IMG/VR virus record: IMGVR_UViG_3300028591_000087
Span: 96,001-160,000 of that record
Strand: one strand, 5' to 3'
From: a virus
Taxonomy: Duplodnaviria > Caudoviricetes
Length of the DNA stretch: 64,000 bases
A program made the translations under genes and the position numbers. Numbering within the stretch: the first letter of the stretch is position 1; each line of letters starts with the position of its first letter. The notes beneath the pieces were generated by a model. That model did not search any database, was not told the origin of the DNA, and worked only from the letters and a program-made list of their open reading frames with translations. Positions 29,874-59,196 of this stretch are shown here, in pieces.

Positions 29874-30365
29874 TTACTCCCAATTTAATTCATTATTTAA
29901 TGCATGATCGGCTGCATATCCTATACAAATCGCGTCGGCTTCGTCCTATGTACAGATCTTGCCAAACTTCTCTCTAACCCACTCTTGAGCAATTTTTTTC
30001 TGAGCATTACGTTTTTTATCATTATCTTTTAAGAAATGACATTCCGCACGCCATTGATTTGGTGCCCAAATCTCGAATGGAGTATATTTAGATAGAAGTG
30101 TTTCAATAATTGCTCCTTGTAATTGAGCCAATGCTTTAAAAGTTTGTACATTATTAGTTTGTCCCTGCAAAGAAATATCTTCTATAATAACCTTATCTGG
30201 TTTGAACTTAATGAGCATAACCTATAAATATATACAAACTTTATGGATTCTTTTTAATATATCTTCATCGTCAAATGTTACTTTGCCGAAGTCGGTCAAC
30301 TAACCATCTTCAAAGATTGCCCACCCGCTAGTGCGGGTAGCCTAATCAAGGGCTAGGATTTTCAT
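29874..30365 (-). CDS. ruvC: RuvC-like Holliday junction resolvase, 163 aa with four TAG=Gln
   Basis: MKILALD(Q)ATRTSGWAIF...VIIEDI...LAQLQGAI...(Q)DEADAICIG; the acidic catalytic motifs are joined only by readthrough. Confidence 0.85.
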
Positions 30366-30948
30366 CCGTAGAACCGAATCCACCCTCGCGTTCGCCATTT
30401 GTCACATCGTCAATTGTTGTTCCATATTGGAGGAAGACACCTTGACCGATACAGTCGCCTTTTTTCAATATAATATCAAAGGGTAGTAGATTAATAATTT
30501 GGAAATAGATGTGTCCTTCATTGGATGGATTATTATAATAATCTGCATCAATAATTCCAACACCATTTCCTAATATCAGCCAATGCTTTAATGAAAGGCT
30601 GGACCGCACACTTAATTGTAAATACCAATCTTCTGGCATTTTAGCCTTAATTCCTGTTGGAACAAGTGTAACTTTCTTTTTGTATTTCTTTACAAAAGTG
30701 GCAGTTGTGTCAAGATTATATGGAAGACTCTTGATAAACTCCTCAAATGATCCATAGTATGTAGATAGATCCTTTGCTAACTCATTTGCAAAGTCAGCTT
30801 CAATAGCACTTAGATAACTCGGTATGACCGTATCTTCTGCAACGTAGAAGTCATAACCAGCAGATGCTTTTGTTTTCCGAACTGGAATTTTAATATCTGG
30901 ATCATCTTTATACTGTTCAATTTTTTCAAACTTTGCGTCAATAGTCAT
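30346..30948 (-). CDS. dut: Trimeric dUTPase
   Basis: SAGYDF, RSS, GIIDADYY, GQGVF and REGGFGST motifs. Confidence 0.93.
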   Translation of the reverse strand: MTIDAKFEKIEQYKDDPDIKIPVRKTKASAGYDFYVAEDTVIPSYLSAIEADFANELAKDLSTYYGSFEEFIKSLPYNLDTTATFVKKYKKKVTLVPTGIKAKMPEDWYLQLSVRSSLSLKHWLILGNGVGIIDADYYNNPSNEGHIYFQIINLLPFDIILKKGDCIGQGVFLQYGTTIDDVTNGEREGGFGSTDENPSP

Positions 30949-31171
30949 AGCTTACTTTTACACCAGATACAGGATCTTTTTCGTTATTAATAACTTTCTT
31001 AACCTGTACAACCTGGTACTCCTCTTCAGTTTTCTTGTTAAATTTAGTGGTGTATTTAAATGACTGCAAGTCATATTCTGGCGCAGTATTAAATTCATCA
31101 CGTAGTTCCAATGCTTCATTTACAGTATCCACACGATAGGTTTCAGTTACGTTTAAAAGATAACGAGCCAT
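30938..31171 (-). CDS. Hypothetical protein
   Basis: AGGGAG RBS; overlaps the dut start. Confidence 0.7.
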   Translation of the reverse strand: MARYLLNVTETYRVDTVNEALELRDEFNTAPEYDLQSFKYTTKFNKKTEEEYQVVQVKKVINNEKDPVSGVKVSYDY

Positions 31172-31181
31172 ATTTTTCTCC

Positions 31182-31445
31182 TTATTTTGAATTTAGTTCA
31201 AATGTAATTTCGCCATAGTTAAATTGATGCATTAAATATTCCTGAATCGAATCACTTAAACCCAATCCAGCATAATTACATAATACATGGTCGATATGAC
31301 CAGAATTAATACAAGCACTTATTGCTTCGATTAATTTATCCATTTCTGCTATATGAAACTAAGTTTCTCTCGGTTGACCATTATCATCTAAATAAAAGAA
31401 GATAGATGGTCCAACCGGATCATAATTAAAATATCCGTATTTCAA
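31182..31445 (-). CDS. Hypothetical protein, 87 aa with one TAG (31359); absent from the ORF track
   Basis: TTG start overlapping the upstream TGA; fills the intergenic gap exactly; ends TAA before the next RBS. Confidence 0.6.
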
Positions 31446-32038
31446 TAATATACAACTCCTTGTTCGTATGGGAACAAATAAGCCACGGTAGGCTCTCCAT
31501 CCCACATTGCCCAAATTTCAACTGCGCCAGATGGCTTACCATCGATCATTTCTACTTCAATAGAACGAAGATCATGATCACCATAATGGTTCGTTAAAAC
31601 ATCTTTTAATTCTGCTCGGAAGCTCTGCCAAGGAGTCATACGAACAGGACGTTTAAGCGCATTACAAGCGAAGATAGTAAAGTAATGCTTTTCGTGATTA
31701 AGCAAAGCAAAATGAAGCATATATTTATCTTTTGTATGTTCATCGAACCAATCTACAATTTTATCAAGAGCATTATTGACTTCCATATTGGTCATAGATT
31801 TTAGACCATTAATTAAGTCTTTATTCATCTGATACATAGTAACTTGCGCGATAGGTTCTTCACGTTGCTCTTCGGGCAAGTTTTTAACCTGATTTTTAAG
31901 ATATTCCGCGTATTCATCAGGTTCCATAAAGATAGGTTCTGGCTCTTCCGCAGGAATAGTTTTCTCCAATGTGGTTTCTTCTTCCACTATTGGCTCAATA
32001 TCAGTATTTTCTTCTACCTTAATTTTTCGTCTGGACAT
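31442..32038 (-). CDS. Hypothetical phage protein
   Basis: AGGAGG RBS, with a promoter upstream. Confidence 0.75.
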   Translation of the reverse strand: MSRRKIKVEENTDIEPIVEEETTLEKTIPAEEPEPIFMEPDEYAEYLKNQVKNLPEEQREEPIAQVTMYQMNKDLINGLKSMTNMEVNNALDKIVDWFDEHTKDKYMLHFALLNHEKHYFTIFACNALKRPVRMTPWQSFRAELKDVLTNHYGDHDLRSIEVEMIDGKPSGAVEIWAMWDGEPTVAYLFPYEQGVVYY

Positions 32039-32561
32039 TTTCAATCCTCCTATCATCTATTTTATTATACCAAATATTTTTTTCGTGGTCAAGAGTCCAA
32101 ACCTCTTGATTGGAACTGCCACGATAAGGTAATGTAATATCGCGTAGTTCTTGAACAAAAGGTCCAGTTACTAACGTATCTATATTTTGAAGGATTAATT
32201 TAAGATGTGAATTACTTTTATTTGACATAATTTCATTCATTGTATATCCAGACCAAAGCCAAATTTTAATATTTGGATAAACATTGCGCACTTCCTGTAT
32301 AATCATTGCTGTCAAGAATAAATTAGGACGTGCAAGAGGTTCTCCACCTAATACTGCAAAATTGCGAGTTATATTATTTTTTTTAATGCCACTAATGATA
32401 TGTTCTAATGTTTCTGCGGTAAACTCATGTCCGCCGTCAAAATCCCAGGTACAAGGATTGTGACATCCAGGACAATGAATGTCACAACCCTGAGTGTAAA
32501 ATGAAAGGCATAAACCTGGTGCGGCCGCAGTATCATCATATATGATTCCAGCGTAACGCAT
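32019..32561 (-). CDS. nrdG: Anaerobic ribonucleotide reductase activase (radical SAM)
   Basis: GCDIHCPGCHN, LGGEP and RGSSNQ motifs; adjacent to nrdD. Confidence 0.93.
   Translation of the reverse strand: MRYAGIIYDDTAAAPGLCLSFYTQGCDIHCPGCHNPCTWDFDGGHEFTAETLEHIISGIKKNNITRNFAVLGGEPLARPNLFLTAMIIQEVRNVYPNIKIWLWSGYTMNEIMSNKSNSHLKLILQNIDTLVTGPFVQELRDITLPYRGSSNQEVWTLDHEKNIWYNKIDDRRIENVQTKN
32062..32092 (-). promoter_or_regulatory. SigmaA-type promoter with extended -10
   Basis: TTGACC...TGGTATAAT, inside the 3' end of nrdG. Confidence 0.7.
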
Positions 32562-34810
32562 TAATTTTCTATCCTTCCTGTGTGTTTTACTCGTTCTTCA
32601 ACTTCCTTTTGTTTTCCCCAATTAAAGGCTGTTGTGTAATTCCCAGTAAGGTATCCAGTAACTCTACGCAACTGCTGAATATGAGAACTGGAACAAATAG
32701 GACAAATATCATTAAACTCACCAGTATAACCGCAATCCAAACAGGTATCATTAGGCACATTGATAGCAAAGTAAGGAATATCATGATCCATAGCATAGTT
32801 TACAATCTGTTCCATTGCATCAAGATTGTTTTCTATACCTGTCTCCAATTCTACGTAGGTGATGCATCCTGCGCTACTATACCCGGTTAATTGTGATTCA
32901 ATATCAATCTTATCAAGAACTCCAACTTTCTCCCAAACCGGAACGTGGATACTATTGGTAAAGTATTCATGATCAGATACATTCTTAATAGTTCCGTACT
33001 TCTTGCGGAACTTTTTCATCGCTGTGTAGCAAAGGTTTTCCGCAGGTGTGTAATAAACACCAAAGTTAAGTTTATATTTTTGTTTAAATTCAGCACACCG
33101 ATCTTTAAACAATTGTTCTATCCTCTTGGCATATTTCATGCCTTCTTCATGACATTGATTAGTATTGAAAAGAATTTCAAGTGTTTCAGCTAAACCGAGC
33201 TGACCAATTACTACTGTTCCATGTTTAAGTGCGGAACGGATACCCTCTTCCGGCACGTAACCAGCCATAGTATGGTTCTCATACATGAACTGTGCGGAAC
33301 GAGGATCTTGTTTGCATATATACTCGAAGCGTTCAATTAGCATGTCTTTTGCTTGATCGATCTTTGAATCAAGAATTGCCATAAAAATTTCGAAGAGTGC
33401 TTCCGGATCACCGTCAGCGTGTCCGTTCAGATCAGACTCAACGGCATTTTTAGCCATCATCGCAAGTGTAGGAAGAATAATGGTTACTGGACAGATGTTG
33501 CCTCGACCATCTTTAAGTTGTCCAAATCCATTGATATCGAATCCATTTGCGGTTCTGCATCCCATTGTGCTGAAATAGGTTTTTGGGTCTTTCGGATCAT
33601 AACCAGCGTTGCCGGACCAATCGCAATTCGCGTAGTTGGGGTAGAGTCTTTTGGCAGTTGATTTAAGGGCGAGTTTATAAAGGTCGTAGTTTGGATCTCC
33701 TGGTTCACGATTGACTCCTTTCATCATTTGGAAAATTCCGCATGGGAAAATTGGTGTGCGGTGAAGTTTACCAACACCTTTAATAGATCCTTCAAGCAAA
33801 GCCTTGATTACCATTCTACCTTCTGGTAGAGTGCAAGTTCCATAATTGATAGAAGTAAATGGAAGTTGATTTCCGCTTCTTGATTGAAGAGTATTTAAAT
33901 TATGATACATACCTTCTACTGCTTGTTGAAGTTCGCGTTCAGTCATATCCATTGCATAATTATAGCACTTTTCACCATATGATTTAGCATCTGGCGAATC
34001 AATTCCTGGAACCTCATATTTAGGATCATATAATTTTACATCATAGTTATCTTTTCCAATAGCACCTTCTATATACATTAAGCCATCACGCATATGCTTC
34101 CAGAAACTTTTTCTTACATAAGGTACCATAGTCCAGTCTAAATGACTGGCGCTCACACCGCCGAATTGTTGCAAACTTTGAAGCTGAAAAATTACAGCGA
34201 TAAGTTGAAATGCAGTGTTAATACTGCGTGCAGGTCTAACGTCAGTTTGACGAGTGTTGAATCCTTTTGCAAGTAAATCATCAAAAGGAATAGTTAAACA
34301 GTTATGCATACCTACCGCATAAGCGTCAAGATCGTGAATATAAATCATATTATTTTCGTGATTTTCTTTCGCCATATCACTCATACAATAGTTAAGTGCA
34401 TATTCTTTCATAACCGCAGAATCAGTTTCACCTTTACGTCCACCAAATGAATACTCGTCAACGTTCGCATTCTGATTCTGTACATTGGTTGCTTCAATTT
34501 TATCTTTTAGTTTAAGGAAGAAATCATCACGTTGTTCACGAATAACCTCTTTCTTGTAACGATACCGCACATATTTGCGGGCAGTCTTAGGATCATATTT
34601 CATCAAGAACTCTTCAACTTTATCTTGGATTTCTTCAACTGAAATATCATAAGCCTCATTCTCTTCTTCCATATAAGTAACAATATCTTCTACGTAAGGA
34701 GGGTATGGTTTATCTGGGGTATACTCTGGATCCCAGTATGCTTTTGCAATAGCTACGCGGATTTTGTTACCATCGAACTCGACTTTTCGTCCATCACGTT
34801 TTGTAATCAA
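32561..34810 (-). CDS. nrdD: Class III anaerobic ribonucleotide reductase with ATP cone
   Basis: ITKRDG ATP cone, YIHDLD, MGCR, TPAENL, CxxC..CxxC, RRVTGYL glycyl-radical motif. Confidence 0.96.
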   Translation of the reverse strand: MITKRDGRKVEFDGNKIRVAIAKAYWDPEYTPDKPYPPYVEDIVTYMEEENEAYDISVEEIQDKVEEFLMKYDPKTARKYVRYRYKKEVIREQRDDFFLKLKDKIEATNVQNQNANVDEYSFGGRKGETDSAVMKEYALNYCMSDMAKENHENNMIYIHDLDAYAVGMHNCLTIPFDDLLAKGFNTRQTDVRPARSINTAFQLIAVIFQLQSLQQFGGVSASHLDWTMVPYVRKSFWKHMRDGLMYIEGAIGKDNYDVKLYDPKYEVPGIDSPDAKSYGEKCYNYAMDMTERELQQAVEGMYHNLNTLQSRSGNQLPFTSINYGTCTLPEGRMVIKALLEGSIKGVGKLHRTPIFPCGIFQMMKGVNREPGDPNYDLYKLALKSTAKRLYPNYANCDWSGNAGYDPKDPKTYFSTMGCRTANGFDINGFGQLKDGRGNICPVTIILPTLAMMAKNAVESDLNGHADGDPEALFEIFMAILDSKIDQAKDMLIERFEYICKQDPRSAQFMYENHTMAGYVPEEGIRSALKHGTVVIGQLGLAETLEILFNTNQCHEEGMKYAKRIEQLFKDRCAEFKQKYKLNFGVYYTPAENLCYTAMKKFRKKYGTIKNVSDHEYFTNSIHVPVWEKVGVLDKIDIESQLTGYSSAGCITYVELETGIENNLDAMEQIVNYAMDHDIPYFAINVPNDTCLDCGYTGEFNDICPICSSSHIQQLRRVTGYLTGNYTTAFNWGKQKEVEERVKHTGRIEN

Positions 34811-34864
34811 AATATAACCTCCTCTATGGGTTGTATAATATATTTGAAAATTAAACTATATATA

Positions 34865-35440
34865 TTATTCACCCATGACCTTGGATACATCATTTAGTAT
34901 ATACTTAAAGCATCGCACCATATCTTGGTCTGATTCATTCCAAAGACTGGTTAGATCTTTATCTTCATCTAACAATTCAAAATCTTCTTCATCAGCTTGA
35001 AAGCGACGTACAATTTCATGTACATCAGGATCTTCTTCTCTATTAAGACTTCTTAATAAGCGAGTCTTATCTCTACATCGAATCCAATAGGGCATCAATA
35101 TAATATCTGAATCATACTTAACTGTTTCCTTCAAACAGTCATAACCTTCTGGATTCCATACACCTACATTAATTCCATCAACTAATGAAGATTTCATTGT
35201 GCCGTAATGCCAATCATTAAAATATGTAGCTTCAAGCATTTCGCCATTTATAACCTTTTCCGCAAACTGTTCCGGAGTCAAGAAGTAATAACTCTCTCCT
35301 TCTCTTTCTTTCTCTCTCTTAGGACGAGTTGTGCAGGAAACCACATTATGCCAGCCTGGTTGTTTGGACAGTAGGAGAGCTATACTGTCCTTGCCGGCTG
35401 CGCTTTTTCCAATTAAACAAACTATTATTTTACGCGACAT
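34865..35440 (-). CDS. gmk: Guanylate kinase-like protein
   Basis: GKSAAGKD, VSCTTRPKR..E..Y.F and WHYGT motifs. Confidence 0.85.
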   Translation of the reverse strand: MSRKIIVCLIGKSAAGKDSIALLLSKQPGWHNVVSCTTRPKREKEREGESYYFLTPEQFAEKVINGEMLEATYFNDWHYGTMKSSLVDGINVGVWNPEGYDCLKETVKYDSDIILMPYWIRCRDKTRLLRSLNREEDPDVHEIVRRFQADEEDFELLDEDKDLTSLWNESDQDMVRCFKYILNDVSKVMGE

Positions 35441-38400
35441 CTTCTTCGCTCTCTCCTTGTGCTCTTTCACTTCTCAGAACTATGCTACCGTTAGCAAATA
35501 TCTCATCAATTTTATATAATTGATGTCCAGGAGTTCCACTATACTTTTTGCTCACAAATTCAGTACCACGGCGTAATCCTGTTACTACGAGCATACTTCC
35601 TCTCTTAAACCAAGATCTTTCAACTATTTGTTTCGTTCCATCCGCTCTGCGCTGACTAATTTGTCGATCAAACATTGCGAAAAACTCTTTTGTGAACTTA
35701 ACTGTGATAACGCTATTATCTGATGCCAATAGGGTAACAGTTGACTTCATTTTATTCTTCGCTATAACTGTCCCGCAAATGCGCGCCAGCTTATAGATCG
35801 GAATGTGACCGCGCCACAAACTCTCAACCAGAGGCTCTTCCGGCAACTGACTGTAATCAATCAATCCATATTTCCTCTTGTTTACATTTGCAAGTTCATG
35901 TTCATGGTCGTAGAAACACATAACTTCCATTTCCCAACTTGAATAATTACCCTTTGCGTATTTATCCCAATCAGCCACAAAGATTTCTTTATTCAATCTA
36001 TAAAGAACTTCATCCTGATTATTCTTCATCCATTCGCGCACTTTATCCATTTCAACCTGGTATACTTTATCCCACGTCTTGCAATTCAACAACAGATTTC
36101 CATCTATTGGGATATCATATCTACCATTTATGAAGTTCAATGCTCTATCATCTAATACGAAGAAATCTCCTCGTTTACATTTATCTTTCAGATATCTATT
36201 AAATTCAAATACCTTTCTTTGTTCATTCAATTCATCTGGCAACATATTTCTTTGAATCAAACCATTCATATTCTGTAACGTGATTCTCTTTTTACGATCA
36301 CACGTTGCATATATATATTTCGCCATTATATGTTTTCTTTCATCAAACTTATCAAATGCGCCAGACTTAATCAAAGATATCATTGGCTGTTTGCCTAACC
36401 GCACTTTTCCGCAGAACTGTTCAAATGATATATAAGGACGATTATCAATTATCTGAGCGATAACATCCTCACCCACATTTAACAATCCTTTCATACCAAA
36501 CATAATTGCATTTTCCTTTACATTCGGTGTGAATCCATATTCTGAGACATTTATGTCAATCGGCAGAACCTTAATTCCACGACCTTTAATATCATTTACT
36601 GCCTTTGCGATCTTTCCATAGTTTGTTTGTCCTTTTTCTTCCGGATCGACAGCTCCACTATTGACAATCAAACAAGCTGAGTTCCAATATACTGGGCTAA
36701 ATTGTGTTGCCAATATAATTGTCTGAATACCTACGAAGCTATAAGGCAAACTATGATTCAAACTAAATGCATATCCTAACTGTGGGCGAACCGCAATTTC
36801 CCAGATATAATCCGCATTTGCGCCAACCGCATCATATACCTTTTGCTTCAACTCTGGGATTCTCTTTTGTTGCTTTTTCGCCACAATCTTTCTTGCATCA
36901 TTCGCATCTTTCAATGAGAACTTTGCTATATCTGGATCCATCAGAATCTGCATCATTTGCTCTTGGATTGCACAACATCCATAATACGTGTCACAATACT
37001 TATGCATTGCTTCACGCATCTTGTCGGGCAATCCACTTCTCTGCATTTCAATATCAAATAATCTAATTCCGCCATCTCTGATCCGCACATATCTATCTTG
37101 CTGGCTCTCCACACCAGGTTCAGACATCAAACGAATCATTGCATTGGCTGCTGTCATTTCAAGAGGATTCGTTGCTTTAATCATCTTAGCCATTGCCAAT
37201 CCAACACCACTGTTAAACTGGAACACATCCAATACGTCACCTTTTGCAAGATGATCCCAAATCTTTTGATCTGTTGTGTCAATATGTTCCGGATGAAGAT
37301 ATTCATCATAAAATGATCTTAAATCCATATCTGGGATTTCTTTATTTGATTTCAAAAGTTTATAACACTCAATGATTTTATCACAAACTTCTGTTACCAA
37401 GAAGTCATATTTTGTGTCGCCGGCTGCCTCAGCCATGTGAAGATCATAACACGTTGTTAAATCTCCATCTTTACCTCTCATAATCGCAGCCGTATCATAC
37501 AAAGTTGCGGGATCATATAAAATTGTGCCAGATGCGTGGATACCTCTTGACTTAACTATTCCTTCAATGTTTATTATAATATCTGCTAATCCAGGATATT
37601 TCGCCAATTCTGTTATCATTGCCGGAACTGGACGTTTACCTAAAACTTCATTTCCCTTCATACAATCCTCAAAAGAATAGATAATTCCACGAGGTTGCGG
37701 AATTAATGTTGTAATATAGTTTGCAATATCAACATCAATTCCATCCGGGAACTCTTCACTTCTATATCCACGACAAGCTGTTTGAATCGCACTTCTTGTC
37801 GCTTCTGTGCCGAATGTAACAACCTGCACCAAACCCAACTCGCCACGTTCTTCTCTGATCTTCTCAAAGATCAACGGACGAATACTTGATGCCAAGTCAA
37901 TATCAATATCTGGCAATTCCGCACGTTCCATATTCAAAAATCTCCAATATGGAAGTCCCCATTTTATTGGATCTAATTGCGTAATACCAAGAAGATAATT
38001 ACTAAGAAAGCCAGTAGCACTTCCGCGTCCAGGACCAACAATAGACCCGCATTCCCAGAAAAGGTCAATATAGTGTTTAAAAGTATTAAAATAAGCAAAA
38101 AGACACGTACCAAGTCGGTCACCAATATGTCTAATAACTCTTGCTTCTTGCTCTATTCTATCTACATAATCTTCATGTTCGTTCCACACCCCAATCTTCT
38201 CCTGAAGAGCGTCCCAAACATCATTAATCCATTGACGCTCTTGAGGTTCGTTGGATACGAACAGACTGCCGATTGTACTATAACATCCATCCTTAAAATC
38301 ATCTGCATACTGGGTATTATTTCCCCACCATGCAAATGGCTTTGGAGGATTAATTTCTACGGTCGGTATTCTCTGATTCTTCAACAGAGAATAATCCTGT

Positions 38401-39278
38401 ATACTATTTTTCATATCAATGGAAAACTCGAACATTCTGTCAATCCATTCATCTTCAAAAGAAGCCCTTAAATGTTCACGACATTCGTCCTCGCTCATAA
38501 GATATGCATAACGATAGAATGCATCAGTCTCTCTGTCTCCATCCTTGGATTTCAGATAAGCCTCATGCGCGAACCGCAAATCTTTACTTAGATAATGACT
38601 ATCTGTGCCGGGAATCATTTTCAATCCCCATTGCTCTGCACATTCTTTTAACATTTTATTGGCAATAATCTGATCATCATATTCAGCTGGGGCGCACTCG
38701 ATATAAAAATCATCCTTGCCAAATGTATCAATACAAAATTGTAAGAACTCATCAATTGATTTTTCATTCAATGAATCCTTAATTCCTGCGGTCATGCTCA
38801 AATGCTTTTGCAATAATCTCGACGACAATTCACCACCAAGACATGCAGTTGTTCCAATTACATGACCTTTATATTCTTTCATCACTTCCGCAAGTTCGCT
38901 CTTTAATGTTGGAACTCTCTCTTGAAACCAATCATATTTATTATACCATGCTTTAGAACTTAGAATGCGGAGTGCCTTATGTCCTAATTCATCTTTTGCA
39001 ATCAAGATAAAATGATAATATACTTGACGCTGTTCTCTTGTGTCTGTTAGATAAATCTCATTACCTAATGCCACTTTGAAGTCGGGATATTTTTCTTTTA
39101 TCTCTTGTGCATATTTATTCACTTCAATGTGACAACATAACGCTTCATGATCTGTGATTGCAATACCAGAAAGACCTAATTGAATAGCTCTGTCAATTAG
39201 GTCTTTGGGTTTGTTAATAGAATCAATCAAACGGATGTTGCTATACATGGTGTGATTATGATCATTGAAAAACGCCAT
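35430..39278 (-). CDS. dnaE: DNA polymerase III alpha subunit (family C)
   Basis: PHP domain HNHT..AITDH, GPGRGSA, PDIDID, GIHASG; no internal TAG. Confidence 0.95.
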   Translation of the reverse strand: MAFFNDHNHTMYSNIRLIDSINKPKDLIDRAIQLGLSGIAITDHEALCCHIEVNKYAQEIKEKYPDFKVALGNEIYLTDTREQRQVYYHFILIAKDELGHKALRILSSKAWYNKYDWFQERVPTLKSELAEVMKEYKGHVIGTTACLGGELSSRLLQKHLSMTAGIKDSLNEKSIDEFLQFCIDTFGKDDFYIECAPAEYDDQIIANKMLKECAEQWGLKMIPGTDSHYLSKDLRFAHEAYLKSKDGDRETDAFYRYAYLMSEDECREHLRASFEDEWIDRMFEFSIDMKNSIQDYSLLKNQRIPTVEINPPKPFAWWGNNTQYADDFKDGCYSTIGSLFVSNEPQERQWINDVWDALQEKIGVWNEHEDYVDRIEQEARVIRHIGDRLGTCLFAYFNTFKHYIDLFWECGSIVGPGRGSATGFLSNYLLGITQLDPIKWGLPYWRFLNMERAELPDIDIDLASSIRPLIFEKIREERGELGLVQVVTFGTEATRSAIQTACRGYRSEEFPDGIDVDIANYITTLIPQPRGIIYSFEDCMKGNEVLGKRPVPAMITELAKYPGLADIIINIEGIVKSRGIHASGTILYDPATLYDTAAIMRGKDGDLTTCYDLHMAEAAGDTKYDFLVTEVCDKIIECYKLLKSNKEIPDMDLRSFYDEYLHPEHIDTTDQKIWDHLAKGDVLDVFQFNSGVGLAMAKMIKATNPLEMTAANAMIRLMSEPGVESQQDRYVRIRDGGIRLFDIEMQRSGLPDKMREAMHKYCDTYYGCCAIQEQMMQILMDPDIAKFSLKDANDARKIVAKKQQKRIPELKQKVYDAVGANADYIWEIAVRPQLGYAFSLNHSLPYSFVGIQTIILATQFSPVYWNSACLIVNSGAVDPEEKGQTNYGKIAKAVNDIKGRGIKVLPIDINVSEYGFTPNVKENAIMFGMKGLLNVGEDVIAQIIDNRPYISFEQFCGKVRLGKQPMISLIKSGAFDKFDERKHIMAKYIYATCDRKKRITLQNMNGLIQRNMLPDELNEQRKVFEFNRYLKDKCKRGDFFVLDDRALNFINGRYDIPIDGNLLLNCKTWDKVYQVEMDKVREWMKNNQDEVLYRLNKEIFVADWDKYAKGNYSSWEMEVMCFYDHEHELANVNKRKYGLIDYSQLPEEPLVESLWRGHIPIYKLARICGTVIAKNKMKSTVTLLASDNSVITVKFTKEFFAMFDRQISQRRADGTKQIVERSWFKRGSMLVVTGLRRGTEFVSKKYSGTPGHQLYKIDEIFANGSIVLRSERAQGESEEDVA

Positions 39279-39299
39279 GATAAACAATTCCTTTCTTTC

Positions 39300-39339
39300 A
39301 TTCTATATATATTATATCATTTTTTTATATAAAAATCAA
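39300..39339 (-). promoter_or_regulatory. SigmaA-type promoter for dnaE
   Basis: TTGATT...TGATATAAT-ATATATAGAA. Confidence 0.75.
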
Positions 39340-40737: not shown

Positions 40738-40767
40738 AATAATACCATAACTTTCTTATGTTGTCAA
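40738..40767 (-). promoter_or_regulatory. SigmaA-type promoter
   Basis: TTGACA...TGGTATTAT. Confidence 0.6.
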
Positions 40768-43603: not shown

Positions 43604-43613
43604 TTTAAACTCC

Positions 43614-46244: not shown

Positions 46245-46245
46245 A

Positions 46246-46301: not shown

Positions 46302-46305
46302 AATC

Positions 46306-47292: not shown

Positions 47293-47308
47293 TTATCGTG
47301 TCCTCCTA

Positions 47309-48603: not shown

Positions 48604-48624
48604 GTAGTAATGATCCTTTCCTCA

Positions 48625-48665
48625 TTTTCTACATATATAATATCAAATTTTTTCTTTTTCGTCAA
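48625..48665 (-). promoter_or_regulatory. SigmaA-type promoter
   Basis: TTGACG...TGATATTAT-ATATGTAGAAAATGAG. Confidence 0.7.
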
Positions 48666-50429: not shown

Positions 50430-50446
50430 ATTATCACCTATTTTAG

Positions 50447-50477
50447 GAAAGGGGGTTGATTTTACTCAACCCCCTTA
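50447..50477 (-). terminator. Intrinsic terminator
   Basis: AAGGGGGTTGA-loop-TCAACCCCCTT. Confidence 0.75.
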
Positions 50478-50499
50478 TATTTACCTGTCTGGGACTTAA

Positions 50500-50778
50500 T
50501 TACTCAGCATCCGGATCAGCATTCACATCAACGGCGTAGCCAGCATCAGTGAGCTTGAGGAACTTAACCTTCTTATGGGTGCCATCGGCGAGTTCGATTT
50601 CGGCTTCTTCACGAACGCCAAATTTCTTGCGCTGAATTGCAGAAGTGAAGATACCATCAACACTGCGCTTTTCAAGACCGAGAGCATCTGCCACATCCTG
50701 TGCGGTTACGTTGTCAGTTGCATTCAAACCCTGCAGATAAGTAATTACCTTTTTTGTGTTTTCTTTCATTGCTGCCAT
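50500..50778 (-). CDS. Small winged-helix DNA-binding protein
   Basis: VTAQDVADALGLEKRSVDG..LKLTDAG; own promoter, AAGGAG RBS and terminator. Confidence 0.7.
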   Translation of the reverse strand: MAAMKENTKKVITYLQGLNATDNVTAQDVADALGLEKRSVDGIFTSAIQRKKFGVREEAEIELADGTHKKVKFLKLTDAGYAVDVNADPDAE

Positions 50779-50865
50779 AATACTTTTTCTCCTTTGCGCT
50801 TATAGCGTCTTACTAAAATAATTTTTTGTATATAATAATCTGAAGGATTTGCCTATCAGTTATTA

Positions 50866-50903
50866 TCTATACAGATTATACCATAAATTTTTTTCAAGAT
50901 CAA
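50866..50903 (-). promoter_or_regulatory. SigmaA-type promoter
   Basis: TTGATC...TGGTATAAT. Confidence 0.65.
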
Positions 50904-51100
50904 ATATTTTTTTCTTTTAGATAATCTTGAATCAATTCATCAAGTGCTATCATCTCTTGGAAGTCTAATTCTTGTGCTTGCTGTGTTTGCATCATGCGAT
51001 TCTTCGCTTCGTTTACTTCATTATGATCAGTACTTGTCTGGATGGTATATTCCAGATCAGCAATTTTTTTAGCTAATTGCTTAAGCTGTTTCTTAGTCAT
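50900..51100 (-). CDS. Hypothetical protein
   Basis: Own promoter and AAGGA RBS. Confidence 0.7.
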   Translation of the reverse strand: MTKKQLKQLAKKIADLEYTIQTSTDHNEVNEAKNRMMQTQQAQELDFQEMIALDELIQDYLKEKNI

Positions 51101-51121
51101 AAGATATTTTTCCTTTTCTTT

Positions 51122-51163
51122 ATCTTACATACATATTATATAAAAAATTTTTATGAAAATCAA
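51122..51163 (-). promoter_or_regulatory. SigmaA-type promoter
   Basis: TTGATT...TATAAT-ATGTATGTAAG. Confidence 0.65.
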
Positions 51164-51175
51164 CTAGGCTGTGCA

Positions 51176-52387
51176 TCAACCGAATATAGAAGTTAGCGTG
51201 CATTCCTTAGGATCTTTATCATCTCGAACACGCTTGAAGTAGAAGTGTCTGAGTGTATGATCTTCTTTGTGCTTCTCCATTCCCGCAAGTTCAACCACTT
51301 TATAAATATACTTGAATGGCTCTTCTTTAAGTTCCTCTTGCATTTTTTCGGTTAAGCCAGAAGATATAGTACCAATTTCAACTACCATATTATTTTCGTC
51401 ATATGCGCCAATGCGGATTGCTGTTGGCCACCCATAATAATAGGCTTTTGTTACTGGCATTACTTCATGTTCTAAATCTTTATAAACTGCACGTTTGTCA
51501 ATAGGAACTCGACGTTCGCTTATCAACTCTCTTGGCGCACCATTATCAGAGAATGGAGAATATTCTTCAATAACCCAATAAGGCCAAGACAACGCTGGAT
51601 TACTCATAGATTCAGTCAATGCTTCATCTATACGTCCATTCTCATCAAGAGCAGTATAGTTTGGTCCAATATTTAATTTACCAGAATAATACTTGGTAGG
51701 TTCACAGGTACCAATACAAATTGCATCACAAGAATCAGTTTTCTTTACTTTGATCGTGTCCCAAACTGGACGCTTACCAGGTGCATAATGCGCAGTTCTT
51801 TTCTTTAGAACCATGCCTTCTTCACCATTCTCAAGAGCAGAGATACAGGCATCTTGAATGTTTTCTTCTACACAACCTGCAAGTTCCATAAACGGATATG
51901 CGCATAAGTTATATTTCTTTACTATTGCTTCAAGAATCTTGTATCTATTATACGCACCAACTTCAATCAAAGACATTCCATTAAAGTAGATACAATCATG
52001 CATATAATAGTGCAATAGTCCATAGCCTTGCTGTTGACGCTCTATTGCTTTATCAGGAAGTGATCCCATAATAGGAGTTACATCTTTTGATTCTTTGCCC
52101 GGATAATAAATTTCACCGATAATGATGGTACCCGCGGGCAAAACATTCAAAACGTTCATAATATGTGGAACATTTGCGCCCTTTTCCGCAAGTATACCAG
52201 TTTTCTTAGAAACAGTTCTACTCCATAAATATGAAGCATCATCTGTTTTTTCAAATTGATACCAATAACCATCCTTTTTTAATTGTGCAAAGTAATCACC
52301 AGATGCACAAATAGAGGGAAAGAGATCTTCTTTTCCCTCGGGAATCTTATTGATTTTCATAGGTTCTATACAAAATGGCTTACTCAT
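51176..52387 (-). CDS. ATP-dependent DNA ligase
   Basis: QLKKDG (motif I), IIGEI, YMHD, EGMVLK, KVKK, GTISSGL, LRH..F.RVRDDK. Confidence 0.88.
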   Translation of the reverse strand: MSKPFCIEPMKINKIPEGKEDLFPSICASGDYFAQLKKDGYWYQFEKTDDASYLWSRTVSKKTGILAEKGANVPHIMNVLNVLPAGTIIIGEIYYPGKESKDVTPIMGSLPDKAIERQQQGYGLLHYYMHDCIYFNGMSLIEVGAYNRYKILEAIVKKYNLCAYPFMELAGCVEENIQDACISALENGEEGMVLKKRTAHYAPGKRPVWDTIKVKKTDSCDAICIGTCEPTKYYSGKLNIGPNYTALDENGRIDEALTESMSNPALSWPYWVIEEYSPFSDNGAPRELISERRVPIDKRAVYKDLEHEVMPVTKAYYYGWPTAIRIGAYDENNMVVEIGTISSGLTEKMQEELKEEPFKYIYKVVELAGMEKHKEDHTLRHFYFKRVRDDKDPKECTLTSIFG

Positions 52388-52388
52388 C

Positions 52389-54794
52389 TTATACCCTCAC
52401 TGCACTCACTAAGCTATTATCTTTAATCAACTTAATCGTTGAACTTGTTCTTGATCCAAGAGAAATGTCAGACACATTTACACATATAGATCCAGTGTTT
52501 CCGCACAGAAGAAGGCTTCCAGTGCTTTCAAGCCCACCGACGCCCGTGACGATCTTGCCTGAGTGATTAACTTTAAGGCCCTTACCAGATCTATTCTGCT
52601 TAGTGAATTCATTAACCATAACTCTCTTCCCTGTTCCGTCGCTACAGCCAATGAAAACCTGCCCGATGGCATCCTTGCTATTACTGTTCCCATCTTGTCC
52701 GAGACTGATACCCACGGTTGCTTCATCGTTATCCGCAAGTCTGATTCCTTGAACTCCAACAGAACATCTTCCAGTTGCTCCAACTGTCGCTCCATCAAAT
52801 CGAATCCCCATACCTTCCTTAGTTAAAATCAAAATGTCTGTGTTTGATCCGACCCATACTCCAATAATAGAGTCATCTTCTCTAAGCTTGATCGCTTGAA
52901 CTCCACCTTTACGTTTTGTACCCACGTATTCGGATACCAGCGTCTTCTTGACCAAACCTCGCTTAGTAACGAACCACACATACTGTCCAGCATTTTCTGT
53001 CCTCTCGGCTGAGGTAATTGCTACCACTTGTTCCGCAGGTGCCATCTCCACTAACGTAGAAATCGCTGTTCCACGGGAAGTTTGTGTTCCTTCCGGAATT
53101 GTGTCGACACCAACTCGGTAAACTTTACCTTGTGTAGTGAAGGCGAGTAATACATCTACCGTATTAGTCTCAATTGTAGCTAAGGTGATATCATCCTGTG
53201 TCTTTACTCCCTTACCATTACGTTTCTGAACTTTGAACTGTTTTTTCGGTATGCGCTTAATATTACCAGCTTCTGTTGCTACAATCACAACATCTTCCGG
53301 CACTATTTGCGCAACCTCTTTTTCTTCTTTTGTGACTTCAATATTAGTTACAGTAGTTCTACGTTCGTCACCAAACTTATTCTTAAATGCTTCAAGTTCT
53401 GCAATAAGATCTTTTTTAAAGACTTCTTCATCACTCAAACGAGTAACTATTAAAGCCTTTTCCGCATTTTTATCTTTTCTCTCTTGTTCAATAGCCAATT
53501 TCTCCATATTGGCTAATCTACTTAAAGTCATCGCAAGAATTGCTTCTGCTTGTTCATCAGTGAAATAATATCTCTTTTTTAACTGAACGTGCGCTTCTGC
53601 TTTATTCTTAGATCCTTTAATTAATTTAATGACATTATCAATATCATCAAGTGCCATACATAGACCATCAAGAATATGAATACGTTGTTCCAATTTCTTT
53701 AGATCATATTCATTTTTTCTGCGGAATACATCTTCTTGATGCTCTACATAGTATTTTATGATATCAACCAATGTTAATTGTTTCGGCACTTTATTCACAA
53801 GTGCTACCATATTAACACTAAATGTAGTTTCCAGATCAGTTAATGCATATAATTTATTAGCAATTACATCTGCATTAACACCCTTTTCCAGTTCCACAAC
53901 GAACCGTAATCCTTCTCTATTTGATTCGTCAAGTATTTCTCTAATGCCATCCAATTGCTTGGTTTCACAGAGTTCATCAATTGTTGTAACCAACTGTTCT
54001 TTAGACACCTTATAGGGAATTGAATCGAATACCAGTCTATCACGTTTGTCTGGAGTGACATCGACATGATAAAGTCCTCGTACTCGCACACGACCTTTAC
54101 CGCTTGTATAGATATTTCTAAGTTCCTTTTCATTGATAATACAACCACCGGTGGGGAAATCTGGTGCCTGAAGTATCTCTGCAAGCGATACATTGTCCGT
54201 CGCAGTTCCCCTAATGTATGCGATAATTCCATCCATGACTTGTCGAAGATTATGAGGGGCAAAATTGCATGCCATTGCGACAGCAATCCCAGTTGTTCCA
54301 TTGCAGAGGAGATTTGGGAAAAGTCCTGGAAGATATACCGGTTCAGATCCAGTTTCGTCGAAGTTAGGGATCCAGTCAACAGTGTCTTTTTTGATGCCAT
54401 CAAGTGTTGCCTCACTTATTTTGCTTAATCTACATTCAGTATATCTCATCGCTGCGGGAGGATCTCCATCACGACTGCCGTTATTTCCATGGAACTCAAT
54501 GAGAGGGTACCGCATATTCCACGGTTGGCTTGACCCTACCAATGCGCCATATATTGAACTATCACCATGCGGATGATACTTACCCATTGTATCGCCAACA
54601 GGTCTCGCGCACTTAACATATTGTTTATCAGACTTATATCCACTTTCCTGCATACACCAGAGAATGCGTCGCATAACTGGCTTTAAACCATCTTCTACTG
54701 CGGGAATCGCACGATCTGTGATAACAGAAAGTGAATAATCAAGAAATGATTGTTCAACCTCTTGGACTATTGGGGCTTGAATAATATTATCCAC
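52389..54794 (-). CDS. gyrA: DNA gyrase/topoisomerase IV subunit A
   Basis: DGLKPV, YHPHGDSS, AAMRYTE and GyrA-box-like QKRNGKG; C-terminal beta-pinwheel repeats. Confidence 0.93.
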   Translation of the reverse strand: MDNIIQAPIVQEVEQSFLDYSLSVITDRAIPAVEDGLKPVMRRILWCMQESGYKSDKQYVKCARPVGDTMGKYHPHGDSSIYGALVGSSQPWNMRYPLIEFHGNNGSRDGDPPAAMRYTECRLSKISEATLDGIKKDTVDWIPNFDETGSEPVYLPGLFPNLLCNGTTGIAVAMACNFAPHNLRQVMDGIIAYIRGTATDNVSLAEILQAPDFPTGGCIINEKELRNIYTSGKGRVRVRGLYHVDVTPDKRDRLVFDSIPYKVSKEQLVTTIDELCETKQLDGIREILDESNREGLRFVVELEKGVNADVIANKLYALTDLETTFSVNMVALVNKVPKQLTLVDIIKYYVEHQEDVFRRKNEYDLKKLEQRIHILDGLCMALDDIDNVIKLIKGSKNKAEAHVQLKKRYYFTDEQAEAILAMTLSRLANMEKLAIEQERKDKNAEKALIVTRLSDEEVFKKDLIAELEAFKNKFGDERRTTVTNIEVTKEEKEVAQIVPEDVVIVATEAGNIKRIPKKQFKVQKRNGKGVKTQDDITLATIETNTVDVLLAFTTQGKVYRVGVDTIPEGTQTSRGTAISTLVEMAPAEQVVAITSAERTENAGQYVWFVTKRGLVKKTLVSEYVGTKRKGGVQAIKLREDDSIIGVWVGSNTDILILTKEGMGIRFDGATVGATGRCSVGVQGIRLADNDEATVGISLGQDGNSNSKDAIGQVFIGCSDGTGKRVMVNEFTKQNRSGKGLKVNHSGKIVTGVGGLESTGSLLLCGNTGSICVNVSDISLGSRTSSTIKLIKDNSLVSAVRV

Positions 54795-55353
54795 AGTTAC
54801 ACGCCTTTCTAATCCTTTTGATTGTTTCATCTACTGGATACTTTTTCATAGAGTAATCCAAAAGGATTTCACTTAATTCTATATTTATTTTATCATTTTT
54901 TTCATCTATTTTCAAATGAGTATCATTTGTAATGGCACCTGTTGCTAGCTTATCAGCAAGCTCATTATATGTATGCCCGCTATGACCCTTTACTTTATTG
55001 ATATAGACATAATTGTTTCTGAAATATGGAATTAAAAGTTCCCATATATCTTTATTTGCGACAGGTTCCTTTTTACTATTAATCCAACCACTATTTTCCC
55101 AATTTATATACCATTTATCAAAATAGCAATTACAAAAGTAAGCACTATCACTGTGTACAGTACAAACTTCTGATGGTTCATAGTCAGACCAAAATTTTAA
55201 TGCTTCTAAGGCTGCACGTAATTCCATACGCTGATTTGTTGCATTTGGCTCCGTACCATGGAGACGAGCAACTTCTTCACCATTATGTAGAACTATTACA
55301 CCCCATCCACTTCTGTTTTTAGTAGCAGAGCCATCTGTATATAAATCAATCAT
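54787..55353 (-). CDS. rnhA: Ribonuclease HI
   Basis: YTDGS, TNQRMEL, SDSAY, VKGHSG..NELADKLA. Confidence 0.93.
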   Translation of the reverse strand: MIDLYTDGSATKNRSGWGVIVLHNGEEVARLHGTEPNATNQRMELRAALEALKFWSDYEPSEVCTVHSDSAYFCNCYFDKWYINWENSGWINSKKEPVANKDIWELLIPYFRNNYVYINKVKGHSGHTYNELADKLATGAITNDTHLKIDEKNDKINIELSEILLDYSMKKYPVDETIKRIRKACNCG

Positions 55354-55915
55354 TTTCTACATCCTTATTTGCTTGATATATTTTTTGTATATATTTAGAT
55401 TTTAAAACTTGCTCTGGATCTTCGCCATGCTGAACTGCATTGTCTAAATCTGCGAAAATAATATCTAACATTATTTTATTCTGTGCGTGCATTGCGCATT
55501 TCTGACGTTTATTTGCCCACCATTTGCGTTCAGCTTGATAAGAAAATTTATCACCTAAATAAGCCCGAGCCGCACTAAGATAATCACAAATCATTTCTGT
55601 AAAATCTTTTTCTGGCATCAAACGAGGAATACCACCATCATCAAAATTATCCATCCAATATTCATAATGATGGGAATTTCTACCCTTATGATGCATCCAA
55701 GCATAAGAGATACCATTCTCTTTTTTCGCTTCATTGATAGGCGATCCAGTGCCAATCCAATAGCGTGCTGATTCAAAAAATTCGACAGGACTATACTTAC
55801 TAAGGTCATGAGTCAAACCACGCCATGGAATTCCCGCTAAAAAACAATAGTGTCTAACCCATTTGCGATGTGTCTGTATTGTTCGCAAATGATTCCACAT
55901 TTTTTTAAACGTCAA
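55346..55915 (-). CDS. HD-like / DUF5662-type protein
   Basis: HRKWV..HDLSK..HHKGRNSHHYEYW..EMICD. Confidence 0.6.
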   Translation of the reverse strand: MTFKKMWNHLRTIQTHRKWVRHYCFLAGIPWRGLTHDLSKYSPVEFFESARYWIGTGSPINEAKKENGISYAWMHHKGRNSHHYEYWMDNFDDGGIPRLMPEKDFTEMICDYLSAARAYLGDKFSYQAERKWWANKRQKCAMHAQNKIMLDIIFADLDNAVQHGEDPEQVLKSKYIQKIYQANKDVEND

Positions 55916-57830
55916 TGTTCGCACGGAATGCATTCTCCTCAATAAATTTCTTTCTTAATGTCGCACTTTCACCCATAAGCGCGTTGAAGGTATTACTTGC
56001 TTCTGTGACGTCGTCCATTGTGATAAGTTTAAGAGTGCGCGTAGCGGGAGCCATCGTAGACTCAGCAAGCTCATCGACTGACTGTTCTCCCAAACCTTTA
56101 AAACGGCGTAGTTCGTAGTTGCCAGAGTGCTTGGAACGATAATCGGCAAGAGCAACGTCATCTTTAATATAGATTGATTCTTTACCTTTGATAATTCTAT
56201 AAAGGGGAGGTACAGCCGCATACACATATCCTTTCTCAATCAACTCTGGACAAAACTTCCAGATGAATGTCAGGAACAAACAACGAATATGGTCACCATC
56301 GACATCAGCATCAGCCATAATAATGATTTTTCCATACCGAAGTTTATTCTCATCAAGAATAATCTTATTGTTTTGAACTTGAAGTCCAAAAGCAATAATC
56401 ATACTCTTAATTTCCTCATTCCCCATAGCTTTTGATAAATCCGCTTTAAGGACATTAAGAATCTTACCTCTGATAGGAAGGATTGCTTGGGTGTCTCTAT
56501 TACGAGCTTCTTTTGCAGAGCCTGCTGCACTATCTCCCTCGACGATAAAGACTTCGCAACTATTCCTGTCCCTATTGGAGCAATCAGCCAATTTCCCAGG
56601 TAGTGTAGTGCGACTAGCCTTAGCTGTCGTGTTTCTAACCACTTCTTTGGCTTTTCTTGCCTTCTCACGAGCAGTCCTTGCGAGGACAGCCTTTCCAATA
56701 ATAGCTTTTGCGTCTTTCTCATGCGCATTAAGCCAATCAGAGATGGATTGCGAGCAAAGTCGTTGAACGATTGTTCTACCTTCTGCACTTGTCAATACTC
56801 CTTTTGTTTGTCCACTAAATACCGGATCTGGCATCGTAAGACTAAGTACAAGTGTAAGACCTTCTTTAAGATCCTCACCACTGAAATTTTCATCCTTTTC
56901 TTTCAAAAGACCCTTTGCACGCGCATATACATTAATTGCTTGCGTAAATGCTGTGCGGAAACCAGTTAAGTGAGTACCTCCTGTATTCGGTATACTGTTA
57001 GTAAAGATACGGTATACATCACTAAATTGATCAGTATATTGAAGTGCAACCCGCACTCTCATTCTATTTTCAACATTCTCCGCATAAAATGGAGAAGTTA
57101 ATTTATTCTTATTTTTTGTAAGAACATCCAAATAATCTAATAGACCATTTGAACTTTCAATTTCAACTTTATCTAAAACTCCTTTGTCATCATGCTTAGA
57201 TAAAGTAAAATGAAGTCCAGGAGACAGATATGCAAGTTCCCAAAGTTGCTTCTTTAATCTGTCATAATCAGGATTTATATTATCTTCAAAGATTTGTTCG
57301 TCTGGAATAAACTGAACAACAGTGCCATGCGGCATATCAGTTTTATTCTGCTTTCGCACGCTAAATTGTAACAGTGCGCCGCGAGCGAACGCAGCCGTAG
57401 CTACTTTACCATCGCGGTAACTATCAACTCTGAATACGCTGGATAGTGCATTGGTCGCCTTTGCACCAACACCATTCATACCACCAGAAGTATTATACCC
57501 ACTGTTACCATCGCTATCGAACTTAGCGCCAGTATGAAGTTTAGTATAGATATTAATGAGGACCTCTTCGCCATCATCATTTTTACCAAAGGGGACTCCT
57601 CTGCCATTGTCAGCCACAATAACGCGAGGCCCATCACACACAACAGATATTTTATCACAAGCTCCTACCAAATACTCGTCAATAGCGTTAGATATTATTT
57701 CCAGCGTTATCTGCCATACACCTTCCGCATCAACTGCGCCGATGTACATACCGGGACGAGTACGGATGGCTTCCATACCTTCAAGTGTTTTAATATTTTT
57801 TACACCATATTCACTATTTGGAGTAGCCAT
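55905..57830 (-). CDS. gyrB: DNA gyrase/topoisomerase IV subunit B
   Basis: RPGMYIG, DNGRGVP, GGMNGVG, VEGDSA, PIRGKILN, DADVDG and RFKGLGE motifs. Confidence 0.95.
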   Translation of the reverse strand: MATPNSEYGVKNIKTLEGMEAIRTRPGMYIGAVDAEGVWQITLEIISNAIDEYLVGACDKISVVCDGPRVIVADNGRGVPFGKNDDGEEVLINIYTKLHTGAKFDSDGNSGYNTSGGMNGVGAKATNALSSVFRVDSYRDGKVATAAFARGALLQFSVRKQNKTDMPHGTVVQFIPDEQIFEDNINPDYDRLKKQLWELAYLSPGLHFTLSKHDDKGVLDKVEIESSNGLLDYLDVLTKNKNKLTSPFYAENVENRMRVRVALQYTDQFSDVYRIFTNSIPNTGGTHLTGFRTAFTQAINVYARAKGLLKEKDENFSGEDLKEGLTLVLSLTMPDPVFSGQTKGVLTSAEGRTIVQRLCSQSISDWLNAHEKDAKAIIGKAVLARTAREKARKAKEVVRNTTAKASRTTLPGKLADCSNRDRNSCEVFIVEGDSAAGSAKEARNRDTQAILPIRGKILNVLKADLSKAMGNEEIKSMIIAFGLQVQNNKIILDENKLRYGKIIIMADADVDGDHIRCLFLTFIWKFCPELIEKGYVYAAVPPLYRIIKGKESIYIKDDVALADYRSKHSGNYELRRFKGLGEQSVDELAESTMAPATRTLKLITMDDVTEASNTFNALMGESATLRKKFIEENAFRANIDV

Positions 57831-57849
57831 CTTTTCATCCTTTCTCTAT

Positions 57850-57890
57850 TTTTCTATGTATATTATATCATAATTTTTTTTACTTTGCAA
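57850..57890 (-). promoter_or_regulatory. SigmaA-type promoter for gyrB
   Basis: TTGCAA...TGATATAAT-ATACATAGAAA. Confidence 0.7.
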
Positions 57891-57927
57891 GGTTCTTGTT
57901 AGCAACAGTAAAGGAAAAGGGAGAGTT

Positions 57928-59196
57928 TTAACTCTCCCCATGAATTTTGGCTGCCAATTGAGCAACCTCGCTTCGTTCTGATTTTTGAAGTTCAATCGTC
58001 CCGAATAATTTATCGCCTTTAAGGCTATTCAATAGTGATGCAATACCACTGTTCTTGCGGAATATATCAGAATCTGTTTGAGATTCATCGCCAAGGAACC
58101 ATACTTCACTACCTTGTTCCGCACGACCAATTATTAATTTAACATTATCAGTTGTAAGATTCTCGGCTTCATCTACAAATATAATGCTATTTTTAATATT
58201 GCGCCCACGTATATATCCTAAATGAAGCGGTTCAATTTCACCGTTATCTATTGCTTGATACAATGCTTCCTGACCTCCCAAGTGGTCAGCAAGTGGCATA
58301 AGCCAAGGCATCAATTTTTCTTCTTGTTCACCAGGTAATGCGCCCAGTTTCTAAGAGCCTGCAACTTCAACATTGTTCCGCACATATACGATTCTATCAA
58401 AATGATGATATTTGACATAATTGATTGCATGTACCAGAGCTAAGAATGTTTTACCAGAACCAAATTGACCTCTAATCATTTTAACAGGAATATTTCTATT
58501 CTGTAATAGATCAAACATCATTCTCTATTGATCATTTCGTGGTTTTACCTTGCCAAAATAATCACTATTTTGGTCCTTATATTTTATAACATCATTTTTA
58601 GTTCCATCCCATTTAACTAGATCTACAATTTCATTATTTAATTTTAAAATTGCATATTCATTCGTCTCCAAGCCAAGGAAATTGGTCTCGGGATGTTCAT
58701 AATAGTTTGCCAAGGCTTGTTCATCTGATTTAAAATCAAATACTACAAAACCTTTCCAAAGTCCTTCTTTATGAGTTGTATCTTTATAATATTGAGGATT
58801 TAATTCCTCTATAAATTTGCAAGCAAGAAGAAACTAAGAAGAATCTGATGTAATAAATTCAATTTTCTATTTATTCTTGCGGGCAATTAATACAGCTTCA
58901 CAAATTAATTTACTATCGTTTTTATCTTGTAACTCTTCGGTTCTATCAAGTAATCTATTTATTTTTCTCCATTTACTATGAGGATCTTTCCATAGCTCTT
59001 GATGATCCATTAAGTAACGAATTAAAACTCGTGCTTTATATTTAATTGTTTCATCTTTTGAGTAAGAGGTTTTAATATCTTCTAATTCTGAAAAAACTAT
59101 TGTGCTAATGTAATTTACATCTTCTGAATCTAATTTATATCCTGCTAATAAAGCACTTGTATCAAAAAACTTAACTGTTTTCTCCAATGCTTTCAT
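57928..59196 (-). CDS. phoH: PIN-PhoH (PhoH2-type) fusion, 422 aa with four TAG=Gln (58867, 58834, 58525, 58351)
   Basis: PIN FFDTSAL..ELEDIK..ND..FITSD; PRNDQ(Q)R; Walker A GQFGSGKT; LGALPG; YIRGR; VDEAENL; GDESQTD. Three track ORFs join by readthrough. Confidence 0.88.

Follow-up and report, generated by a model that had tools for sequence, protein, structure and literature searches.

TAG codons in three enzyme genes of an otherwise TAG-poor replication arm in a recoded rumen phage

The gut phages described by Borges et al. (bioRxiv 10.1101/2021.08.26.457843, section 8) keep their replication genes in the standard code and recode their structural and lysis genes, and this recoding was proposed to delay translation; for one recoded intron endonuclease lying inside an early gene, the same work proposed that it is held back until late. 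Here we describe a related arrangement in a 64,000-nucleotide window of viral DNA (bases 96001-160000 of the single 193,102-bp contig IMGVR_UViG_3300028591_000087, a 193-kb rumen phage that we call G000). Three genes among its replication genes, encoding a RuvC-type resolvase, a membrane-anchored GIY-YIG protein and a PIN-PhoH protein, are rich in in-frame TAG, and this pattern is real, conserved among relatives and statistically strong. We think it fairly probable, judging from the sequences, that these are TAG-gated enzymes embedded in a replication module, that is, that the model of Borges et al. applies here gene by gene; this interpretation is a reasonable but unproven refinement of the published one.

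TAG codons on the replication arm

The plus strand of the window carries a structural (late) arm (1-29424; coordinates are those of the window unless given as genome positions), and the minus strand from 29468 upwards carries a replication arm of 38 genes and 10,779 codons; GC (guanine-cytosine) skew changes sign where the two meet. With TAG read as sense, open reading frames (ORFs) reach 3763 amino acids. Across 74 alignments with orthologues from three relatives, TAG stands opposite glutamine (Gln) in 44% of cases, a 13-fold enrichment, and opposite glutamate in 10%, a 1.3-fold one. The phage thus decodes TAG as Gln, and these figures rule out glutamate for G000.

Start codons were curated before TAGs were counted. 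The arm then holds 18 in-frame TAGs, 15 of which fall in the genes for RuvC (4), the GIY-YIG protein (7) and PIN-PhoH (4), so that these three have 15 TAG to 35 CAR (CAA/CAG) codons vs 3 to 323 in the other 35 arm genes (Fisher odds ratio (OR) 46, p=5.6e-12). This clustering is far above chance. The long ORFs of gyrB, ClpP, RNase H and hyp238 do contain apparent TAGs, but every one of them precedes the true ATG, and none of these genes has an internal one; given the curated starts and the Fisher p-value, neither chance nor an ORF-calling artifact can account for the pattern. The sequence-only reading from which we started had claimed that internal TAGs on this arm occur almost only in nuclease genes, with these same counts, and both the counts and the claim hold. 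So does its observation that the long replication genes lack internal TAGs, once their starts are curated: dUTPase, NrdD, guanylate kinase, DnaE, the RecD-like helicase, RecJ, primase, DnaB, AAA_24, ligase, GyrA, RNase H, DUF5662 and GyrB (30346..57830, minus strand) are all TAG-free, including, as it had pointed out, the nucleases RecJ and RNase H. Pfam and PHROGs back its gene names, confirming NrdD, DnaE, the RecD-like helicase, RecJ, a Toprim primase (weakly), DnaB, AAA_24, ligase, GyrA, GyrB, RNase H, dUTPase and ClpP.

The earlier reading had allowed one further TAG, in a hypothetical gene of 87 amino acids (31182-31442). It is there, at codon 28, and two more genes carry one each: small64 (46083-46244; codon 51 of 53) and orf139 (59811-60230; codon 136 of 139). 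Two of the three stray TAGs thus belong to the final four codons of a gene (P about 6e-4), as one would predict were TAG read as a stop during translation of these genes.

For the late arm as a whole, the count is 198 TAG to 816 CAR. The TAG share of Gln codons is 0.30 in the three enzyme genes vs 0.195 in the late arm, a difference that is not significant. Since they use TAG at the level of late genes, full-length synthesis of the three enzymes must depend on the two tRNA-CUA genes of the phage. A codon-usage classifier of early and late genes that ignores Gln codons places the three between the two sets, as it does several TAG-free genes, and its scores are confounded by strand. No further nuclease of the HNH, HNH_3, PD-(D/E)XK or second GIY-YIG type was detected in the genome.

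Each of the three genes stays open with TAG as Gln in dozens of lineages and preserves its catalytic residues, from which we conclude that they are working genes and not pseudogenes. The RuvC-type Holliday junction resolvase (29874..30365, minus strand; 163 amino acids; Pfam RuvC 5e-08, PHROG resolvase 6e-18) matches PF02075 with 33 bits, over the cut-off. Its TAGs are codons 8, 22, 48 and 140 (30342-44, 30300-02, 30222-24 and 29946-48), the first of which comes right after the invariant LALD catalytic Asp, as the sequence-only reading had seen; D7, E62, D141 and D144 (the LALD Asp, the IED Glu and the DEAD motif near the C-terminus) are invariant in our alignment A2. The GIY-YIG protein (49434..50429, minus strand; 331 amino acids) has an N-terminal transmembrane (TM) helix, from which a basic stretch and a long coiled coil lead to the nuclease domain at the C-terminus (Pfam GIY-YIG 3.5e-09 at residues 243-325, with PHROGs matches; PF01541, 37 bits), and its LapA and coiled-coil matches are N-terminal. 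Its seven TAGs are at codons 39, 44, 55, 58, 170, 259 and 269, and GIY, CYVGQA, R266 and NEREDxW are invariant in alignment A3. PIN-PhoH, a PhoH2-type RNase/ATPase (57928..59196, minus strand; 422 amino acids), matches Pfam PhoH (3.5e-42, 145 bits), PIN_4 (21.4 bits, slightly below the 21.9 cut-off) and phrog_2765 (3e-81). It has TAGs at codons 110, 121, 224 and 282, and the PIN acidic residues D12, E39, D94 and D118 and the Walker motifs GSGKT and DEAEN are invariant in alignment A1.

TAG use across related rumen phages

No close relatives were found among GenBank phages, for which PhoH identity is only 29-36%, and a scan of IMG/VR with the single PhoH protein gave no match. Relatives were gathered from IMG/VR with gyrA and alignments instead, yielding a family of contigs 115-195 kb long, most of them from the same sample types. 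Three large relatives taken whole gave a four-genome comparison, in which about 30 orthologous families of the arm lack TAG altogether (4/4 genomes), while RuvC has 4/5/5/6, GIY-YIG 7/4/1/4 and PhoH 4/3/4/1.

For the wider clade we scored 62 RuvC loci, 80 GIY-YIG loci and the PhoH loci, with TAA as the sole stop, TAG counted within aligned regions only, and the pooled TAG share of Gln codons computed after dereplication. The three enzymes have the highest share of all families: 0.241 for RuvC (TAG present in 25/42 clusters), 0.188 for PhoH (5/9) and 0.173 for GIY-YIG (44/61). ClpP follows at 0.118 (4/7), and DnaB, AAA_24 and primase form a second tier (0.04-0.07), chiefly owing to heavily recoded lineages. 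NrdD (0.011; 5/23), dUTPase (0.008; 1/34) and GyrA (0.001; 1/32) lie far lower, and GyrB, ligase and DnaE have a share of 0, with no TAG in any cluster. Cluster by cluster, RuvC exceeds the other arm genes in 19/21 informative clusters (Cochran-Mantel-Haenszel (CMH) OR 21.8, stratified by locus), GIY-YIG in 39/42 (CMH OR 6.9) and PhoH in 5/8 (CMH OR 17); the lineages are phylogenetically related, which inflates the CMH p-values, and the direction is consistent. The sequence-only reading had named a lack of enrichment in relatives as a finding that would undo it; the enrichment is present in all three families.

One relative shows an additional GIY-YIG gene. In L049 (3087-6015), gyrB is split by an extra GIY-YIG ORF (94 amino acids aligned) carrying 2 TAGs, probably an intron- or intein-borne homing endonuclease as in the case of Borges et al.

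Suppressor tRNAs, operon anatomy and neighboring genes

The genome encodes 71 tRNAs, arranged on the minus strand as two look-alike arrays (genome 3793-20105 and 172076-192991, outside the window; L003, L001, L002), with most anticodons present twice. Among them are two suppressor tRNA-CUA genes (genome 4496-4588 and 182267-182355) of 93 and 89 nt, each with a long extra arm. They are 81% alike, no other phage tRNA closely resembles either, and ARAGORN draws the first acceptor pair of the copy at 4496-4588 unpaired (A1 C72). Each has its own promoter about 30 nt upstream, TTGAC(A/G)-17-TGATAT(A/T)AT. No release factor (RF) or glutaminyl-tRNA synthetase (GlnRS) gene, the components of a "code change module", was found in the genome, so the suppressors stand alone, and any switch would have to be timed by the build-up of tRNA-CUA vs host RF1. 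Near the suppressor tRNAs, no theta or HDV (hepatitis delta virus) ribozyme reached the Rfam gathering score. When active, suppression must be efficient late in infection, given that the late protein of 3763 amino acids holds 70 TAGs. The tRNA-array region also carries a phage transfer-messenger RNA (genome 19504-19836) and a cow-rumen-3 RNA (RF03083; genome 186772-186912).

The replication arm consists of about nine short units, each opening with a sigma70-type extended -10 promoter; promoter-like sites on the minus strand lie at 39311-39339, 40739-40767, 46249-46277, 48637-48665, 50875-50903, 51135-51163, 57862-57890 and 60619-60647. In several of these, an ATAT(A/G)TAGAA element follows downstream, together with a GAAAGGA ribosome-binding site, and the in-frame TAGs just 5' of several true starts are part of that element. 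PIN-PhoH is the last gene of the unit hyp166-orf139-ClpP-PhoH, which is driven by the site at 60619..60647 (minus strand), a perfect TTGACA-17-TATAAT consensus, with a terminator ahead of it (60730-60753) and the hyp166 ATG at 60587. An intrinsic terminator (hairpin plus T-run; 57918..57939, minus strand) overlaps the PhoH stop codon and retains its structure in L008, L010, L012 and L013 despite changes in stem sequence; after it comes the sigma70-type extended -10 promoter of the gyrB unit (57862..57890, minus strand). For the GIY-YIG gene, a GC-rich terminator-like hairpin followed by TTTCCT (50451..50474, minus strand) lies between the stop of hyp92 and the ATG, which follows 15-25 nt later; hairpins of other sequence occupy the same spot in L010, L012, L013 and L015, and no promoter was found between hairpin and ATG. 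The last unit of the arm has RuvC as its penultimate gene, whose start overlaps the 3' end of dUTPase. All three genes are thus operon-distal, where early termination at TAG would harm downstream genes least, which for a set of three cases is suggestive at most.

That these genes are co-transcribed with early genes, as had been claimed, therefore needs qualifying: for GIY-YIG it is doubtful, given the conserved GC hairpin and T-run ahead of the gene, and PhoH comes last before a conserved terminator. We also dropped promoter class as a marker of early transcription, because the sigma70-type promoters of the replication units recur in the late arm (upstream of genome 52683 and 80206, for example) and at both suppressor tRNAs.

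The neighbors of PhoH and RuvC bear on the interpretation as well. The ClpP-like protease (59171..59863, minus strand; Pfam CLP_protease 1.4e-30; PHROG head maturation protease) is TAG-free in G000. In most relatives, including L010, G003/L012, L015 and others, it has a TAG at a conserved ATYqYF site where G000 has CAA/CAG. Four nucleotides downstream of RuvC lies a TAG-free gene for a single-TM protein matching the PHROG "holin" (29468..29869, minus strand; 1e-28). It directly follows RuvC in 4/4 genomes, and its Shine-Dalgarno sequence, GGGAG, is made by the conserved last codons (NWE) of RuvC.

Elsewhere in the genome, three adjacent minus-strand genes (genome 167404-169133) with 3, 3 and 4 TAGs, one of them with a C-terminal SH3_3 domain, are probably the lysis cassette, and this presumed cassette is TAG-rich in relatives as well. 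TAG-free minus-strand genes at window 60774-61854 and genome 160456-161844 encode a calcineurin-like phosphoesterase, an AAA_33 kinase-like protein and an RNA ligase, which together resemble a tRNA/RNA repair set in the manner of Pnkp plus ligase.

Interpretation and comparison with known systems

In the reading that we favor, RuvC, the membrane GIY-YIG protein and PIN-PhoH, and in many relatives ClpP too, are written in the late "dialect" amid TAG-free replication genes. A ribosome without charged tRNA-CUA would stop after 7 codons of RuvC, 38 of GIY-YIG and 109 of PIN-PhoH, leaving inactive stubs; full-length enzymes would appear only once the two tRNA-CUA genes raise suppression enough, the same condition that would apply to the structural and lysis genes. 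Termination at TAG early in infection, and a resulting delay of these proteins, is what we infer from the codons. The most likely sense of such an arrangement is that these are enzymes for the late phase or ones whose early presence would be harmful. RuvC classically acts late, and the resolvase here would debranch DNA for packaging. "Late-acting or harmful-early enzymes" fits the set better than "nucleases", the description given by the sequence-only reading: the three enriched enzymes accord with the latter, but ClpP, a protease, has a TAG at a conserved site in most relatives, and three PhoH orthologues have none.

A stronger version holds that the code switch is the main timer for individual genes, with TAGs positively selected as a safety lock on enzymes that cut DNA or RNA and the operon ends sparing the genes downstream. 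We consider this rather unlikely. The earlier claim that nucleases are kept untranslated until the code switch agrees with the intact enzymes, their late-level TAG use and the otherwise TAG-free arm; the data place the three genes in the suppressor-dependent class without demonstrating that a lock was selected for. Passive tolerance, which we rate as possible if somewhat doubtful, accounts for the data as well as a selected lock does: in genes needed only late, CAG-to-TAG mutations would not be purged and would drift to the equilibrium of late genes, making the enzymes suppressor-dependent with no selected lock and no role for toxicity. Much of what we found fits it. The TAG share is that of late genes not only in G000 but across the four genomes (0.16-0.30 vs 0.12-0.30 for late orthologues), and most TAG positions turn over among orthologues, shared sites being few (LALDq in 3/4 RuvC genes, NDQq in 4/6 PhoH genes). 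ClpP, which is no nuclease, carries TAG in relatives, while the PhoH orthologues of L046, L047 and L050 have lost all of theirs even though the adjoining ClpP has one, and the first TAG of RuvC shows no significant 5' bias (P=0.24). Three observations pull the other way. The TAG share of RuvC is modestly above that of adjacent late genes (OR 2.2, p=0.009, 9 strata). Among Gln sites, the first TAG of GIY-YIG lies closer to the 5' end than chance predicts (P=0.001, n=11), and PhoH shows this marginally (P=0.06). A single RuvC column has TAG in 14/15 Gln-coding lineages. Shared ancestry or weak constraint may be behind all three, and the GIY-YIG bias could be explained by its fast-evolving coiled coil.

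Further points, besides the inflated p-values and the PhoH orthologues without TAG noted above, weigh against gating. The holin-like gene behind RuvC is TAG-free, which would be odd for a holin where other lysis-like genes are TAG-rich. With strong promoters on the suppressor tRNAs, suppression may start early and any delay be short. In L145, L157, L161 and L188, which are heavily recoded, the replication genes themselves have 22-30 TAGs; at the other extreme, L077-L080, L086, L089 and L090 have no TAG in any aligned gene and are apparently standard-code, so that the clade extends all the way from the standard code to recoding throughout. Two other explanations seem to us much less probable. 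Several incompletely read TAGs per gene could keep potent nucleases at very low copy throughout infection, an idea prompted by the 4-7 TAGs in each gene and by suppressor tRNAs that are maybe transcribed from the start; such dose attenuation is quite improbable when complete late proteins must be made from genes with 27-70 TAGs, which requires efficient suppression once it is on, and when TAG number ranges from 0 to 8 among orthologues. Least credible of all is that the TAG-rich genes are mobile or of recent arrival, homing endonucleases for example, and that their codon usage came in with them. The GIY-YIG domain does match homing-endonuclease PHROGs, and the second GIY-YIG ORF of L049, with its 2 TAGs, does split gyrB, but all three genes are syntenic core genes over 50-85% identity and dozens of lineages, and we rejected a mobile origin on the strength of that synteny. 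The GIY-YIG protein was likewise rejected as a homing endonuclease: every relative has it as a syntenic core gene, it lacks a homing-type DNA-binding domain, and its nuclease domain is C-terminal, behind the TM helix and coiled coil.

If gene-by-gene gating is correct, codon choice alone would time single enzymes inside otherwise early operons, at a finer grain than a block-wise split into early and late genes. It would also offer an annotation rule for recoded phages, namely that a TAG-rich gene within a TAG-free module is probably late-acting, and it would flag PIN-PhoH and the membrane GIY-YIG nuclease as late-phase functions.

Compared with the phages of Borges et al., G000 follows the same principle, and we regard it as a refinement of their idea and not as a new mechanism: it too reads TAG as Gln, encodes suppressor tRNA itself, keeps its replication genes in the standard code and has TAG in its structural and lysis genes. 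It differs in that the enzymes concerned are resident core enzymes (the resolvase, PIN-PhoH and the membrane GIY-YIG protein) and not an intron-borne selfish gene, in that a separate rumen phage clade has been scored family by family, and in that its suppressors come without the RF or aminoacyl-tRNA synthetase of a code change module. A non-exhaustive literature search found no paper naming RuvC or PhoH in a TAG-gated role. PIN-PhoH resembles PhoH2 proteins in its order of PIN then PhoH and in its intact acidic residues and Walker motifs, and the GenBank phage proteins that match it best carry PhoH2 or ribonuclease annotations; it differs in its low identity, only 29-36%, to every GenBank phage. 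For the resolvase, the nearest parallels are T4 gp49 endonuclease VII and T7 gp3 endonuclease I, late-expressed junction resolvases whose timing is transcriptional. As in those phages, packaging calls for a debranching nuclease whose premature presence harms branched replication intermediates; here the visible device is codon choice instead of transcription, and the enzyme has a RuvC fold instead of that of endonuclease VII or endonuclease I.

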